Below are positions 34,101 through 43,100 of a stretch of 64,000 nucleotides of DNA, piece after piece. The position numbers are program-made. The DNA comes from an uncultured delta proteobacterium (lineage in GTDB: Bacteria > Myxococcota_A > Polyangia > Palsa-1104). The stretch covers positions 15,191 to 79,190 of the forward strand of contig CAWAWS010000025.1 of the NCBI GenBank assembly GCA_963785725.1. The letters run 5' to 3'. Within the stretch, counting starts at the first letter, position 1, and every line of letters starts with the position of its first letter.

Positions 34101-37100
34101 CAAGCGCTGATTCTCGAGCGTGATATCGGCGCCGACGATGGCGTGTAGGCTCTGTCCGCTGGCGCGCCGATAAAAGCGCGGCGCGCCATATAAGCCGTCG
34201 CGATCGGAGACGGCCAGCGCGTTGTAGCCGAGCTCCACCGCGCGATCGGCCAAATCCTCCGGCAGCGATGCGCCGCGCAAGAAGGAAAAGGCGCTGGCGG
34301 CGCGTAATTCGACGTAATCACAATAGGGCATTCAATGACGTTTCCATTTCATTCGTAACAGCCGTCGATATGCCAGCTGTTCTGTTGCAAGTCGTGAAAG
34401 ACGCGATAAATGGCGCCGTCGGATAATTCGACGTCGTAGTAATCGCGTATCAATGGGTTTTGCCACCAGCCGTCGCGAATGCGGAAGGGACCGGCCGCGG
34501 CCAGCACTTGGCCGCCGACGCCTTGGCCGCTCAAGTAGCGCAAACGGCCGCGATCGAGGCGCGCTTCGGCATCGAGCGGCGGGCGCAACGCGTGCAAAGC
34601 CAGCTGGCGCGCGTCCGAAGCCGGGGGCGTCATCTTCGCGGGCAATGGCTCGTCTTGGGTCACTTTGAGCGGCTTATTGGCGACGCGCGGCGAGTTGAAC
34701 GGCTGCAGCGTGAACGCGTCGGGCAGGTGGCGATCGACGAGCGCCGGCGCGCCCACGCGCGTCTCGCCGACGAGCGCGCTCAGCTTGGCCAGCGTCGACG
34801 CCAGCTTGTCGGGCGACGGGCCGGCGGGCTCGAAGAACGACAGCTGCGCCGGCCGCGCCCGCGCCGGCGTCGTGCGAATGCGAATGCTGTCGACGGCGTT
34901 CGCCGGCGGCGACGTCTCGAGCGCCAGGCGCACCAGCGACAACAGCGTACCGACATCGCGCGTCGGCGAGGCGACGGGCACGACGCGCACGTCGCGGCCG
35001 CGCGGCGACAGCTTGAGCGAGAGGCCCAAGTCGCTGGCCGACAGCGCGCGACAGGCGAGCCGCGCCGTCAAATTCTCCAGCAAACGACGCAGCACGAACA
35101 GGAGCGGCTCGACGTTTTCGCAGGGCCAATCGAGATCGATCCCCTCTTCGAACAGCGTCGGCTCGGGGCGCGCGATGAGCGGCGAATCGGCCTGGCCGCG
35201 CGCGATGCGACCGATGCGCGCGCCTTCGGCGCCGAGCCTCACGGCGACACCGCCTTGCGGCAGCGCCTCGAGCTCGCCAATCGTGCGCACGCCCCAGCCG
35301 CGCAGCGTCGCCAGCACCGCCGCGTCGGGCTCGAGGAGCGCGATGGGCAGCGGCGCCAAGAACGCGGCCTCGCGACCGGGCGCGACGACGGTGACGTCGG
35401 AGGGCTCACCGTCGGGGCCGACGCCGGCGCGGGCGGCGATGCGCGCGGTCGTCTTGTCGCCGGCGATGCCGACGCGCACGGCCAGGCCCAGCTTGCGCGC
35501 GGCGACGAAGAGCGCGTTGGCGATCTCGGCGTCGCTGTCGAAGAGGCGGCCCAAATCGGACACGTCGAGCGCGACGCCGGCGGCGACCGACTCGACGCGC
35601 GGCGAAAAGGCGGCGCCGAGGTCGGCCAGCGCGCTCTCCGCCGAGCGCACGAGCTCCGGCGAGCGCGCGCGATAGACGGCGTCGGGCGCGGCGGCGCGGG
35701 CGACGAAGAGCGTCATGCCGACGCGCAGGCCGAGCTTGCGCGCGGCGGCGCTCAGGTCGAAGACGTCGCGGCCTTCGCAGACGACGAGCGGCTGCCCGAC
35801 GAGGTCGGGATCGGCGCGCTCGATCGCCTGCACGGCCAAGTGCGGCACGAGGACGCACGCGATGCGCGGCGCGGTGGCGGTGCGCACGCGCGCCATCGCT
35901 CGCGCTACTTCGAGCCGCTGCGGCCGCTGAATGCGGGCGACGCGGCGAAGCCGGTGTTCTCGTACGACGGGCTACCGGGATTGGGACCGCCGCCGCCGCC
36001 GAAATTGCGCGCCACTTTGGGTGACACGACGACGGCGGGAGCCAGCGGCACGCCCAGATCATCGACGTCCGGCAGGTAGATTTCGCGCGCCAGCTGCGGC
36101 GGCACGCGAATGACCGCGGCGTCGTCGACGTCCGCCGGCAGCGCGCGCCGCGGCGGCCGAACCGTTACGGCGACGGGCGTTTGCAGCTCGCCCAAGTCGA
36201 CGCACAAGGGCAACAGAGCCGCGCCCAGCTGGGGACCGAGCTTGTTGCGCGCCACCGCGATGCGACCGTTGACGCCGTCGAGCAGGCGCGGCGCCTCGTT
36301 CTGCCCGAGCCAGCGGCCGCGCCCGCGATCGGCCGCCAGCGACAGCGCGCCCAGCGTGCCGACGAGCGGTCGATCGGCGACGACGACGAACGCCGCCTTG
36401 GCGCGCTCCGCCCGCCGCGCCAGCTTCAGCCACGGCGCATCGCCGCGGACGACGGATTGCCGCCGATTCCAGCCGACGCGCGTCTCGCTGTCGACGACCT
36501 GCGCGGAGACGCCGGCCAAATAGAGGACCACGAGGCCGAAGCCGCCGACGTCGAGCAGCCAATCGGCCGCTTTCAGCCCGTCGACGACGCTGCGCGGGCG
36601 CACCCACAACAGTCGCGGCAGCGCGACGCCGGCGCGCGCGGCCGAGCGCGGGTCGAGCGCGTCGGCGACGTCGACGAGCGCGACCAGCTCGCCCGCCGCC
36701 TGCGCCGCCGCCGTCATCGCCAGTGTCGCCGACATGCGCCCCGACGAGCGCGGGCCCGACAGCTCGACCAGGCGGCCGCGCGGTAAGCCGCCGTCGAGCA
36801 GCGCGTCGAGCGCCGGCAATCCCGTCGACAAGCGCGCCGCGGCCGGCTGCGTCGAAGCCGCCACCAGGCGCGCGCTCTCGGCTCGCATGCCGGCCAGCAC
36901 ATCCGCAATCTGCTGCGCGGTGGCGGCCACGAATGAGATATACTGAACACTCGATCAGGTTTCAAGGGACGACCGATTCATCCAACGTAAGAGCGCGTGA
37001 AGACTGCCATCGTCATCGGCGCCGGAGTCGGCGGATTGGCCGCGGCCATCCACTTGGCGCGCGCCGGCGTGCGCGTCCGGCTCTTCGAGCGCGCGGCCAC

Positions 37101-40100: not shown

Positions 40101-43100
40101 GCAGATGTTGCCCGGCCAGCGCGCGCACAAAAAGAGCGATGCCGTCCAGCGATCTTCGGTCGGCTGAGCCGGCGCGCGGCGCGCCGCGCTTCGACGCCGA
40201 GCTGCTGCCGCGCCTCGTGCGCATTCCCTTCTTTCGACAAGCGACAGACATAGAGATCGATCGTTCCTATGACGCCTATGTCAGCGGCGATTACCAGCGA
40301 CTGTGCGACGTCTGGTGCGAAACGGCGCAGCCGACGCGCGCCGATCTCGGCAAATTGACGACGATTTACGATCGCGCCCGTTACGCGCCTTCCTTATCGA
40401 ACGGCCTGGTGTTCCTCGCGACATTGCGCGCCGTCTTGCGCGCGGGCGTGAAGTTCCGCAGCAAGCTGTCGGCGCGAACGCAGCTGTCGTTACAAAAGGA
40501 CTTCCCCTGGCTCGAGAATCGCCATCGCCATATTCCGCCGGGATGGACACCCTCCTTCAAGTTTCCCGACGAGATGCGCCGATTCATCGACGCGCTGCCG
40601 ATCGAAGACGCGCGCGTGCGCTGGCAATTGTGCGCGGCCTTGAATGAGGTGCAGCAGCAGTGGTATTCGCGCCACGCCGCCGAGCGCTTCGCCGTGCCCG
40701 AGCTCGTGCAGCATGCGGCGCGCGAGCGGCAATTGGCGGTCAATTACTTCGCGCATTGGGCGCCGCCGGTGACGCGCGAGCTGTGGCGCCAATGCATCGT
40801 CATGCTCGACGCGCTCAACGCCGCGACGTTCGATATGATCTGCAATCGCGAGCGCGGCGCGATGTTGCGCCACGCGGCGACGGGATGGATCACCCGCCGC
40901 GGCGAATGGCGACAGTTTGTCGCAGCGTTAAAGACGCCGCAATGGATCATGGAGCCGAGCGTCTACTGATTCATGACTAAGAAAAGTGCTAAAAGCGAGC
41001 CATGGCAATATTGCGCTGGCTCTCTTTGCTCGCATCCGCCGCTTTATTACTCGCCGTCATCGTCGCCAACCTACGCAATGGGCGCATCGTCGATCCCGTC
41101 GTTCTCCGCCGTTCGGCGCGCCGCCTCGGCTGGGCCATCGCCGGCAGCTTCGTCTTCGCATTCGCGATCTTCGCGATCTCCATGATCGGCAGCTTCGCCA
41201 CCGTCGCCACCGTGCCGCCCGAGCGCAAAGCCGCAGTCCTGGCCGCCGCCATCGACGGCTCCGCATTCAGTCTGCGCGGGTCTGTTTGGCTGCTCTTCAC
41301 TGCGCTCATCGGTGTAGCGGTCTTACGATTCCGCGCTGGTTACCATTCGCCCGCCAAGAAATCCTGACGCGCTCATCTGCATTCCGTGTCGGCAATCGAA
41401 GGGCAATGCCGACCGCTCAGTCGCGCAGCACAATCGGCGTTTCCCGCGTGTTAAATGCCGTTCGTCGGACTTCGTTCGCCTCTCCGACTTTTATCTCCCG
41501 TGACGGCGCGATTGACGGAGCGCACAGACTTCGCAACGGTGGCGTTCCATGAAACTGTCTTTCGCGTTCGCATTTGTCCTCTTAATGGGCTGCGGTAATT
41601 CCTCGCATTCGACCGACATGTCGCCAAGCGCCGACCTCGAACCACCCGAGGCAACGGATATGTCCGCGACCGAGCCTGGCGCCGGCGTCGACACCACCGT
41701 CAATATCTTCACCAATCAGCTCTTCGCCTTCGACAACAGCGGCAACAAGCGCGAGAACACCGCCACCGTCGATCTGCCGACGGCCGGCACCTACGCCAAG
41801 ATCACGCTGCACGTCGCGCTCAGCTGCCCGTCCAAAGGCTGCGATCCGTACGATCGCGTGGCCACGCTCGGCGTCATCCAGCCCGGCGGCACCGACGCCG
41901 GCGTCGAGAACATCACGGAGATCGGCCGCTACGTCACGCCCTTCGGCGTCGCCGGCGCCTGGGACATCGACGTCACCGACTTACGCCCGCTCTTGTCGGG
42001 CACCGTCACCATCCACGGCCTCATCGACACCTGGGTCGGCAACGGCCAAGGCTGGCTTTTGACGGCGAGCCTGATCTACGTCGGCGGCATTCCGGCCAAC
42101 ATCCCCGTCGCCGTCCTGCCGCTGCCATGGAGCAACTTCAACATCGGCGACCCCACGCAGCCGGTCTCGTCGAGCCTGCCCGCGCAGACGGTGACGCTGC
42201 CGAGCGGCGCCACCCACGCCGCCGTGCGCATCAACGCCACCGGCCACGGCCAAGGCAACGTCAACAACTGCGGCGAGTTCTGCTCGCTCAACCACACGCT
42301 GCTCATCAACAACCTGCTCGAGAAGCAGTTCGCCGTCTGGCGCGACGACTGCGCCAAGAACCCGGTCAGCCCGCAAAACGGCACCTGGATGTACGACCGC
42401 GCCGGCTGGTGCCCCGGCGCCGACGTCAAGCCGATCACCATCGATCTCGGACCGCGCGCCGGCGCCTTCCAGGTCGGCTACACTATCGACCCCTACGTCA
42501 ACACGTGCAGCCCGGGCGCGTCCTGCGACACGTCGACGTGCACGCTCGGCGCGTCCTGCGACTTCGACGGCGGTCTACACACGACGCCCTTCATCGAATT
42601 CAGCGCCGCCGTCATCGCTTATCGCTAAAGGGAATTCCAATACTGAAGCAGTTGCTTCACTGACGCGCAGCTCGTTTACCGCCATTCCGTCCGGCGCAGC
42701 GCGATCGCACTCACTCAATAGTGAAGCGATCACTTCACTCACGATCACGACGTCTACCGGCCGCCGGAGATCCAGCGCGCATACAGCCCCGTGCTGCGCG
42801 CGCCGGCGACCGGATCGCGCGCGCCGTCCACTTTGCCCGCGACTTGGCCTGCGACTTTGACGGAGAGCTCGGTGCCGCCTTTCAATGGCAATGACATCGA
42901 GCGAAAGCCGTTCCGCGGATCGCGAATGAACTGCAAATAATCGGGCTCGCCATTGTCGTTCATGACCAATCCGCCGACGCGGAGCTGCGGCGCCACGACT
43001 TCGATGACCTCGCGCGCCAACGACGGGCCGTCACCGCCGGGCCAGCCGTCGACGAGCATGAAGTCGATGGGCGCGCCCAATTCGCGCAAGGTCTGGCGCG

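Follow-up and report, generated by a model that had tools for sequence, protein, structure and literature searches.

A flavin-dependent halogenase of Polyangia-class myxobacteria and its obligate, occasionally fused partner that belongs to no recognised family

Halogenases are known to operate alongside helical-bundle enzymes, as in BesD with BesC and CmlS with CmlI. Ferritin-like diiron oxygenases carry two ExxH motifs in a four-helix bundle, and diiron monooxygenases also possess metal-free subunits. Heme-oxygenase-like dimetal oxidases (HDOs) have a seven-helix, HO-like fold. A further precedent is provided by AetF with AetD, a halogenase combined with an HDO nitrile synthase (PMC11611611), and the HDO set is described as having the motif HX3EX2H on core helix 3, with three histidines and three carboxylates contributed by the core helices (PMC13108848, PMC11611611). 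Among flavin-dependent halogenases, PltA and Mpy16 are reported to be carrier-dependent in PMC8407142, which also names the halogenase motifs tested here, including the tunnel motif Fx.Px.Sx.G. According to PMC12400496, the C-terminal region of PltM and CtcP is not conserved in PltA, and the substrate of CtcP itself is unsettled. The WxW pair is not exclusive to halogenases, since QhpG, a monooxygenase which resembles halogenases and acts on a protein Trp, has Trp181 and Trp183 (PMC7876137). The locus described here resembles AetF/AetD, BesD/BesC and CmlS/CmlI in combining a halogenase with a helical-bundle protein; whereas those three sit in larger clusters, the myxobacterial pair lacks one and is sometimes fused.

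Within the window, the whole 64,000-nt stretch of DNA analysed and the reference for all coordinates, a crtD-like gene, a flavin-dependent halogenase gene and the gene for a 276-aa protein, g05925, lie together at 36997..40969, with the following features:

36943..36959, + strand: LexA-box-like site, within the 66 nt that separate the divergent imuA and crtD
36997..38517, + strand: CrtD-type carotenoid 3,4-desaturase, 506 aa (NCBIfam NF045637, TIGR02734)
38514..38996, + strand: halogenase N-terminal piece, 160 aa (Pfam Trp_halogenase, E 6e-6)
38972..39017, + strand: 37-nt insertion splitting the halogenase, absent in five aligned relatives
39004..40167, + strand: halogenase C-terminal piece, 387 aa (NCBIfam CmlS, E 2e-17)
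40139..40969, + strand: g05925, partner without family, 276 aa (ATG at 40139)

The crtD stop overlaps the halogenase start, and the start of g05925 overlaps the halogenase end. The LexA-box-like site, which fits an M. xanthus consensus at 16 of 17 positions, is kept in six close relatives and stays with imuA where crtD lies farther away; it probably belongs to imuA. No sigma-70-like promoter was found, and a hydrophobic-moment scan gave no distinct membrane helix. A flavin reductase gene is present elsewhere in the same genome.

The survey's finding had described g05923 and g05924 as one frameshifted halogenase gene. They are indeed a single gene, whole in relatives: the N-terminal piece is 93.6% identical to residues 1-156 of the intact relative P0118, and the C-terminal piece 93% identical to residues 154-538. 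The lesion, however, is a 37-nt insertion rather than a single-base slip. A 9-nt word is present twice, with 28 extra nt (38981-39008) between the copies; the insertion supplies a stop and, 7 nt on, an ATG from which the second piece can be read in frame, and it resembles a small palindromic repeat of the same genome, similar stretches of 21-31 nt being found on contigs C3, C7 and C18. A net 37 nt is skipped at this site in contigs of three of four soil runs. The halogenase of the source genome has been split recently.

The N-terminal piece contains an FAD motif, GGGLxG, and, within RKFG, the conserved Lys K75 (codon 38736-38738). The general GxGxxG motif reads GGGLVG in the window and in alignment A2, where the Lys (K73) is invariant in 39/39 sequences; in the intact relative it aligns with the KFG of PltA, whose Lys we take to be catalytic. 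RKFG occurs in 107/120 homologues (106 in the survey, for KFG) and RK[FY]G in 116/120, while all 120 have WxWWIH, the WxWxIP motif with His replacing Pro, in keeping with the earlier count for WxWxI. In the tunnel motif, F, D, S and G are invariant and Ala stands for Pro in 38/39 aligned sequences. The C-terminal piece adds the motifs FWxWWIH and DALYSIG, and ends in helices that recall those of PltM and CtcP.

PltA is the best sequence match of the intact relative (E 2.4e-28, the 2e-28 reported earlier), and matches to PltA, ChlB4 and Mpy16 cover residues 3-342 (E 2e-28 to 5e-19). These three share KFG and WxWxI with the myxobacterial halogenase; they are, however, about 85 residues shorter, have a different C-terminal region and need a carrier-bound substrate. 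No carrier protein or NRPS/PKS gene near the halogenase is shared across the 27 GTDB loci, and a carrier-containing gene (FAAL-carrier-condensation-reductase) lies behind the pair only in three E. salina strains. By whole-chain fold, the leading Foldseek matches are PltM and CtcP, aligned across about 555 columns (E 1e-29 to 2e-28, TM 0.70-0.76; PltM itself E 1e-29, TM 0.70/0.75), and the C-terminal helical region, which closes the substrate cleft in the PltM/CtcP type, is present in the model with pLDDT 63-71 in residues 461-510. The designation "PltA-type" is therefore not retained, and the modelled fold points to the phenolic, free-substrate enzymes rather than to PltA. Compared with PltM, which halogenates phloroglucinol, and CtcP, the halogenase of chlortetracycline, the fold and the Lys are alike at about 19-21% identity; unlike them, the halogenase here has no biosynthetic cluster, an obligate partner, and the variant WxWWIH and DALYS motifs. 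QhpG is the second NCBIfam match (E 1e-22), and the GoxB (E 4e-12) and LodB (E 4e-10) models also match, all scoring far below their cut-offs and below CmlS.

Halogenase and partner co-occur in the same 16 of 42 order genomes, and the partner occurs in a 17th, on a 2.5-kb contig. It lies directly behind the halogenase in 12 of 15 order relatives and is found in 25 of 27 GTDB loci (22 directly behind, two fused, one inverted nearby); among 18 metagenome loci it follows in 15, and the other three end at most 255 nt from the match. Fusion to a g05925 domain is seen in 4/120 halogenase homologues, while a search for longer forms yielded one halogenase fusion among 7999 candidates and missed three known ones. 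Two genomes in which the genes are separated retain both, each genome has one g05925 copy, and the halogenase and partner trees recover the same host clades. These results bear out the survey's counts of 16/42, 12/15 and 4/120 and its claim of co-conservation: the halogenase has a partner without a family that is obligate and in some cases fused to it. Besides the pair, no neighbouring gene recurs from one lineage to another; a chorismate-binding (pabB/trpE-like) gene closely follows the pair in four Nannocystaceae-like loci. Cultured carriers comprise three Enhygromyxa salina strains and Nannocystaceae ST9. A link to salimabromide was set aside: SWB007 is reported to have a halogenase with a neighbouring type III PKS (PMC4902002), and such a pair lies on contig C117, whereas the halogenase family studied here is on C100.

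For the crtD-like product, CrtD (1-hydroxycarotenoid 3,4-desaturase) is the best model (NF045637, E 6e-138), though its 460 bits fall short of the cut-off of 580, and the TIGR02734 cut-off is exceeded; orthologues adjoin crtE and crtC in other Polyangia. The desaturase had been said to precede the halogenase in 11 of 15 loci, but we found it directly before in 7/15 order relatives, all of the window's own family (six on one contig, one, G032, across a contig break), in 6/27 GTDB loci and in 6/18 metagenome loci. The pair "usually follows" a desaturase only within that family, where crtD directly precedes the halogenase or the partner in 9/9 pair-bearing genomes; in the seven order relatives outside it and in the Nannocystaceae and Polyangiaceae loci this adjacency was not seen and other neighbours occur, so that the survey's own caveat of synteny within close kin is largely right. 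Within the family, the coupling outlasts flanking gene order: in G033 the triple is intact although its flanks differ, in G037, where the halogenase has moved away, crtD overlaps the start of the partner, and in G032 crtD precedes the halogenase with the partner elsewhere. A crtD orthologue occurs in 16/16 halogenase-bearing order genomes and 10/10 further carriers, and also in 19/26 order genomes without the halogenase (Fisher p 0.024, which overstates the association, since related genomes do not count as independent and the assemblies have gaps). The source genome additionally holds crtE, crtB, crtC, a glycosyltransferase-like gene and a gene for a lycopene-cyclase-like flavoprotein. In the sister family a P450 gene directly precedes crtD in 5/6 loci read; carriers G005 and G022 also have it, so the pair is no substitute for the P450, nor does it replace CrtC, a homologue of which exists on contig C7. 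Open frames of 1011-1019 aa that had suggested a crtD fusion are separate frames, and in Nannocystaceae ST9 crtD lies about 12 kb from the pair with unrelated genes between.

As the survey had stated, g05925 belongs to no family: Pfam and NCBIfam gave no match, cluster representatives yielded 43 matches that are all family members or fragments, a PDB profile search gave no remote relative (best E 0.064), the ESM Atlas returned nothing, and Foldseek with the model gave no match at E 0.001. The model is all-helical with pLDDT 93.5 (94 earlier), and the VIA rows were reproduced, with COQ7 at the top (Z 7.1, rmsd 3.5, 139 aligned) and AetD at Z 6.8 (rmsd 5.4, 190 aligned). In a second fold look, AetD entries took the top six rows (Z 7.3-7.7, 6-8% identity), aligned almost end to end; the best (Z 7.7, rmsd 4.6, 181 aligned) is tied with ferritin-like rows, and ferritin-like and TenA/PqqC-type bundles, including COQ7, MiaE and metal-free TenA and PqqC, score Z 5.9-7.3. 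None of 48161 chains reached Z 8, and values below 8 are typical of unrelated helical models in this search; on the model, g05925 resembles ferritin-like/HDO bundles weakly.

The invariant Glu, His and Asp residues reported earlier do exist, but they form no diiron motif. Conserved positions are R97, H129 (118/119), H131 (118/118), N169, E170 (117/117), Q173, H192, E196 (118/119), Y203 (118/121), D224 (127/127) and N227, together with W59 (113/113) and W257 (124/124); H192 reads Gln in 19/118. In registers derived from motif spacing and aligned ranges rather than superposition, H192-X3-E196 supplies only the first half of HX3EX2H, the position of its final His is taken by Leu or Met in 117/120 sequences, and Arg97 sits on the helix that should contribute Asp/Glu and His. 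Three carboxylates are spaced like ferritin ligands; in place of the ExxH pairs of COQ7 and MiaE, however, stand E170xxQ173 and D224xxN227, Arg replaces the first Glu, and there is an extra invariant HxH loop. The sole conserved ExxH (E126-H129) sits outside the long helices. HX3[ED]X2H is found in 1/104 full-length members, and g05925 is therefore not a canonical diiron oxidase, so that the label "diiron oxidase-like" is not supported in the form given. A complex prediction with intact halogenase, g05925, FAD and two Fe scored 0.00 and is evidence neither way.

Several readings of the pair can be weighed against these observations. It might tailor carotenoids by acting on the 1'-hydroxy-3',4'-didehydro end that CrtC and CrtD produce, a reading that is unlikely though several observations speak for it: the 9/9 crtD coupling in the window's family, which survives rearrangement, the presence of crtD in all 16 order genomes with the halogenase and in the 10 further carriers, the carotenoid genes of the source genome and the sister family's P450 before crtD. 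That the product would be a halogenated carotenoid, or a cryptic halohydrin resolved by g05925 to a 2'-hydroxy or keto group, is likewise unlikely. Against both stand the lack of adjacency outside the family, the many crtD-bearing genomes without halogenase, the P450 in G005 and G022, the phenolic-type fold suggested by the model, and a literature search for halogenated carotenoids, whose one result concerns xenobiotic compounds. We consider it improbable, in its full form, that the halogenase attacks the CrtD-made end of a membrane pigment and that a His-poor, ferritin/HDO-derived g05925, with a novel type of site, either leaves a natural halocarotenoid or takes the halide off again (cryptic halogenation) and so installs oxygen, which would be a new two-enzyme chemistry. 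Nor is it probable that g05925 is, by analogy with metal-free subunits, a non-catalytic pseudo-enzyme bundle presenting a hydrophobic substrate, stabilising the halogenase or guarding HOX; the His ligands missing in both registers, the single copy per genome with overlapping frames and fusions, and metal-free TenA and PqqC among its fold rows would agree with such a role, but the invariant polar cluster (R97, N169, E170, E196, Y203, D224, N227, H129, H131) fits an active site better.

Two further readings appear very doubtful. The flavoenzyme could halogenate or hydroxylate an invariant Trp or Tyr of g05925 to form a protein-derived cofactor, as with QhpG, LodB and GoxB, which likewise combine a halogenase-like fold with one partner protein; strict one-to-one pairing without other pathway genes and the conserved W59, W257 and Y203 are consistent with this, as are the QhpG, GoxB and LodB matches. 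Those scores are low, however, g05925 is unrelated to QhpC, LodA and GoxA by any search made, the halogenase Lys is kept, and a C-terminal region like that of PltM hints at a pocket that is small and closed. Equally hard to credit is the idea that g05925 activates O2 as a genuine diiron oxidase, whether of the AetD or the ferritin type, and cleaves or N-oxygenates an amino acid or arylamine that bears a halogen. The AetD rows, the half motif at H192-X3-E196 (compared with AetD in PMC11611611), loop histidines that could raise the count to three His and three carboxylates, and the chorismate-binding gene behind four pairs speak for it, whereas the near-absence of HX3[ED]X2H, Arg97, the ExxQ and DxxN pairs and Z values below 8 speak against it.

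The reading we prefer, tentatively and at a little under an even chance, is that the pair acts by itself in two steps: a small electron-rich metabolite would first be halogenated and then converted by g05925 at a non-canonical site. The module would consist of two tailoring genes of Polyangia-class myxobacteria. By analogy with family chemistry, the flavoenzyme would take FADH2 from a general reductase, make HOCl or HOBr from O2 and halide, pass it to the conserved Lys and halogenate a small free phenol- or aniline-like metabolite under the C-terminal helical region, as in PltM. g05925 would then act on the halogenated product at a buried polar site of E170, E196, D224 and H192, perhaps with the H129-x-H131 loop, a putative mononuclear, rewired or metal-free version of the ferritin-like/HDO site rather than a canonical diiron centre. 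The substrate may be drawn from general metabolism, in which case the pair would need no cluster and its neighbours could vary by lineage; no conserved gene at the loci points to it. In favour of this reading are the co-occurrence, fusions and agreeing trees of the two genes, the nearly invariant halogenase motifs, the PltM/CtcP-like fold, the lack of a neighbour shared between lineages, the conserved polar residues of g05925, the flavin reductase gene and the AetF/AetD precedent. Weighing against it are the weak fold match of g05925, the Gln at H192 in 19/118, the Ala in the tunnel motif, the QhpG match and the unsettled substrate of CtcP. crtD would be an operon mate in one family only, and its tight link there is not explained by such a generic module.

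Literature searches of openly accessible text, judged by titles and abstract starts, found no paper on the pair, though supplements or subscription-only reports on E. salina genomes may refer to the halogenase gene; this agrees with the survey, and both the halogenase subfamily and the partner family are apparently uncharacterised. Lying outside any recognisable cluster, the pair would be missed by cluster-based mining, and since cultured carriers exist the question is directly testable. The subfamily and its new partner family have been co-inherited in three lineages of myxobacteria, in soil and marine hosts. If the partner is an enzyme, ferritin-like/HDO chemistry would extend to a site that lacks the customary histidines; should a carotenoid be the target, a new pigment modification would be added; and an abundant soil group is marked as a possible organohalogen source.

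Within positions 36997-40969 (the survey's positions count along the window), four open reading frames lie on the plus strand of a genome that is 8.9 Mb in size, 88% complete and most likely myxobacterial, its homologues with names all coming from Polyangia:

36997-38517, plus strand: crtD-like gene, 506 aa, scoring best with the carotenoid 3,4-desaturase CrtD (E 6e-138, under the cut-off)
38514-38996, plus strand: halogenase N-terminal piece, 160 aa, scoring best with halogenase-like flavoproteins
39004-40167, plus strand: halogenase C-terminal piece, 387 aa, scoring best with halogenase-like flavoproteins
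40139-40969, plus strand: partner gene g05925, 276 aa counted from the ATG shared by homologues, with no family match in Pfam or NCBIfam

The survey had read the two halogenase pieces as one gene, frameshifted here and whole in relatives. The single gene stands, since both pieces match consecutive parts of one intact relative (P0118) at 93% identity, while its interruption is due to a 37-nt insertion (38972-39017), in which 28 extra bases are flanked on either side by a copy of the same 9-base word. The inserted stretch appears to be a copy of a small palindromic repeat that is loosely conserved and whose right arm is similar to the codons at that site. It is absent from all five aligned relatives, two of which carry shorter insertions of their own at the site; similar stretches of 21-31 nt occur elsewhere (C3:230586-230612, C7:632862-632882, C7:284291-284321, C7:399484-399511 and C18:56387-56414); and soil-run contigs, derived from relatives and not from this genome, skip a net 37 bases here in three of four runs. 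These three observations favour a small repeat that inserted naturally over an error of sequencing. Because the insertion lies in a turn at which long insertions occur in other family members, and no residue is lost, either the gene has been inactivated recently or its product is made as two chains. A two-chain halogenase is possible in this genome, given that the insertion brings both a stop and an ATG in frame with the second piece.

Judged by its motifs, the protein is a flavin-dependent halogenase: WxWWIH is present in all 120 homologues, as the survey had counted for WxWxI, RKFG in 107 (106 had been given for KFG) and RK[FY]G in 116, the remaining four all being short (351-465 aa). The best sequence match of the intact relative P0099 is PltA (E 2.4e-28, residues 3-342, in agreement with the earlier value of 2e-28), followed in order by ChlB4, Mpy16, CmlS and PltM. 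The label "PltA-type" is thus borne out by sequence but not by fold, as PltM and CtcP come out on top when the predicted structure (pLDDT 86.7) is compared, aligned over about 555 columns (TM 0.70-0.76), and PltA follows over 457 columns. According to PMC12400496, PltA does not conserve the C-terminal region seen in PltM and CtcP, and PMC8407142 lists PltM as a free-substrate and PltA as a carrier-dependent enzyme. From the fold ranking, the C-terminal region and these substrate classes, "free-substrate phenolic type" fits better, an assignment short of certain because one tunnel motif has Ala instead of Pro and the second NCBIfam match is QhpG, a protein-modifying monooxygenase.

The family of g05925 is small and closed, with 98 homologues at 44-88% identity and no tail of remote relatives beyond 43 cluster representatives. 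A sample of 300 genomes from the class yielded it in 22, and one of 401 from the phylum in two. Its model is all-helical, with a pLDDT of 93.5 (94 in the survey's finding). Foldseek returned nothing at E 0.001 and none of the 48161 chains in VIA reached Z 8, the rows including COQ7 (Z 7.1, rmsd 3.5, 139 aligned) and AetD (Z 6.8); a second fold comparison gave AetD (Z 7.7, rmsd 4.6, 181 aligned) and MiaE (Z 7.3). HO-like or ferritin-like folds account for most of the top rows, a suggestive pattern that stays within noise; g05925 may descend from an HDO or ferritin-like diiron family. In PMC13108848 and PMC11611611, HDOs are described as relying on three His plus three carboxylates, the motif HX3EX2H being located on core helix 3. 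This motif occurs in one of 104 full-length family members (38 shorter fragments among 142 sequences were excluded). In registers inferred from spacing and aligned ranges, the AetD positions E170, H192 and E196 are kept (H192 in 98 of 118 members, with Gln in 19) and the last His position is Leu or Met, while the ferritin positions read R97, E170xxQ173, E196 and D224xxN227; two loop histidines, 129 and 131, are invariant. g05925 thus fails the motif tests of both families, and a canonical diiron site is not what its sequence indicates; the site may instead be rewired, mononuclear or metal-free. Of the proposal that g05925 folds like diiron oxidases, a weak fold resemblance within noise is left, and the ligand positions in these registers are changed.

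The pairing itself is real. The halogenase is present in 16 of 42 order genomes, exactly as reported; all 16 also have the partner, and so does G007, a 75% complete genome with the partner on a 2.5-kb contig and no close halogenase found. Of 27 GTDB loci, 22 have the partner immediately after the halogenase, two (Polyangiaceae) have it fused, one has it inverted 2.9 kb away and two lack it, both in genomes holding it elsewhere; the co-conserved, sometimes fused pair of the survey is thereby upheld. It also follows in 15 of 18 metagenome loci, some of them near-duplicates of GTDB loci, and the other three end first. In G437, which belongs to a different family, the two genes sit at the ends of contigs. 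The halogenase tree (27 sequences) and the partner tree (25 sequences) contain the same well-supported clades, tracking host groups, with deep forks unresolved. These counts and concordant trees fit vertical co-inheritance with patchy loss. The pair also occurs in L058 and L049, two records whose titles name Enterobacteriaceae and Pseudomonadota; these are probably mislabelled, because L049 groups within a myxobacterial clade and the L058 genome has myxobacterial-type crt genes.

The desaturase was said to precede in 11 of 15 relatives, a figure that did not hold: crtD stands before the halogenase in seven of the 15 order relatives and six of the 27 GTDB loci, all within the window's family. 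There, it directly precedes the halogenase or partner in all nine genomes with the pair, its stop overlapping the next start in most junctions read; G033 keeps the triple amid other flanks, the halogenase has moved in G037, where crtD overlaps the partner, and the partner has moved in G032. The desaturase is probably an ordinary crtD, since its orthologues elsewhere adjoin crtE and crtC, in agreement with PMC9304148. The genome under study also carries crtE, crtB, crtC and a gene resembling glycosyltransferases, and crtD is present in 26 of 26 tested carriers of the halogenase versus 19 of 26 non-carriers.

Outside the window's family, the neighbours vary by lineage, one set being a Na+/H+ exchanger and an ABC gene. 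In three E. salina strains (L057:12639-20090, L051, L054), a FAAL-carrier-condensation-reductase gene lies directly behind the pair, and a hydrolase gene is also found there. The former encodes about 2,450 aa and combines AMP-binding with two carrier domains, two condensation domains and one reductase domain. Four Nannocystaceae-like loci (L039, L042, L103, L108) have a pabB/trpE-like, chorismate-binding gene and a glutamine amidotransferase-like gene after the pair, separated from it by 16 nt in L108, and an aminobenzoate substrate is possible in that lineage.

Several further observations concern the surroundings. In the sister family (L066, L067, L069, L070, L071), a cytochrome P450 gene, a candidate carotenoid hydroxylase, directly precedes crtD, often with a YtfJ-like gene. 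Carotenoid clusters at L072:4818-7809 and L076:10672-14345 contain crtI, DUF1579, which may have a carotenoid-connected role, crtB and a flavoprotein that fits no family clearly and presumably resembles CruA-type lycopene cyclases. In the window, four genes at 41002-44184, absent there in relatives, separate the partner from a nuclease pair: a small membrane protein, a peptide-N-glycosidase F-like lipoprotein (Pfam), and two that we take to be methyltransferase-like and PadR-like. Divergent from crtD on the minus strand, 31263-36930 presumably holds an imuA, imuB and dnaE2 mutagenesis cassette, with synteny kept in five relatives and a 66-nt gap shared with the crtD operon in the window's genus. 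LexA-box-like sites lie at 36943-36959, before imuA/crtD, and at about 44321, before an SbcD-like nuclease gene; DNA damage could co-induce operon and cassette. The consensus string also appears in the published literature.

Gene structure, motifs, distribution and predicted folds are established here, whereas all of the chemistry is inferred. The likeliest reading, held tentatively and with a little less than even confidence, is a two-step mechanism on a small free metabolite. The halogenase would form HOX in an FADH2-dependent manner and, guided by its Lys, halogenate a small electron-rich metabolite in free form, and g05925 would perform a second conversion at a non-canonical polar site. 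Carotenoid tailoring by the pair, in keeping with the crtD junctions of one family and set against varied neighbours elsewhere, is unlikely. A non-catalytic role for g05925 as a subunit, compatible with the fusions and with its changed ligand positions, seems rather improbable, the conserved polar residues being consistent with a site. That g05925 is a protein substrate of the flavoenzyme, with the QhpG match and a precedent cited from PMC7876137 on its side and the PltM/CtcP-like fold on the other, is very doubtful, and we give equally little credence to a true diiron oxidase, suggested by the fold rows and opposed by the motif counts.

AetF and AetD already exemplify the logic of a halogenase plus a helical-bundle enzyme; the present pair shares it but is cluster-free, sometimes fused, and has a partner of a new family. 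As in the survey, no description of the pair was found in the titles, abstract openings and text passages searched, nor in those of PMC6163206 and PMC6268381. The published E. salina halogenase adjoins a type III PKS in PMC4902002, and its locus appears to differ from that of this pair. All three E. salina genomes have a type III PKS/FabH-like gene with halogenase-like genes next to it (G441:C117:189658-191780, G442:C329, G450:C186), probably the unpublished salimabromide candidate of that paper. The pair is real and apparently undescribed, less carotenoid-bound and less clearly diiron than first read, and, since cultured strains carry it, it can be tested there.
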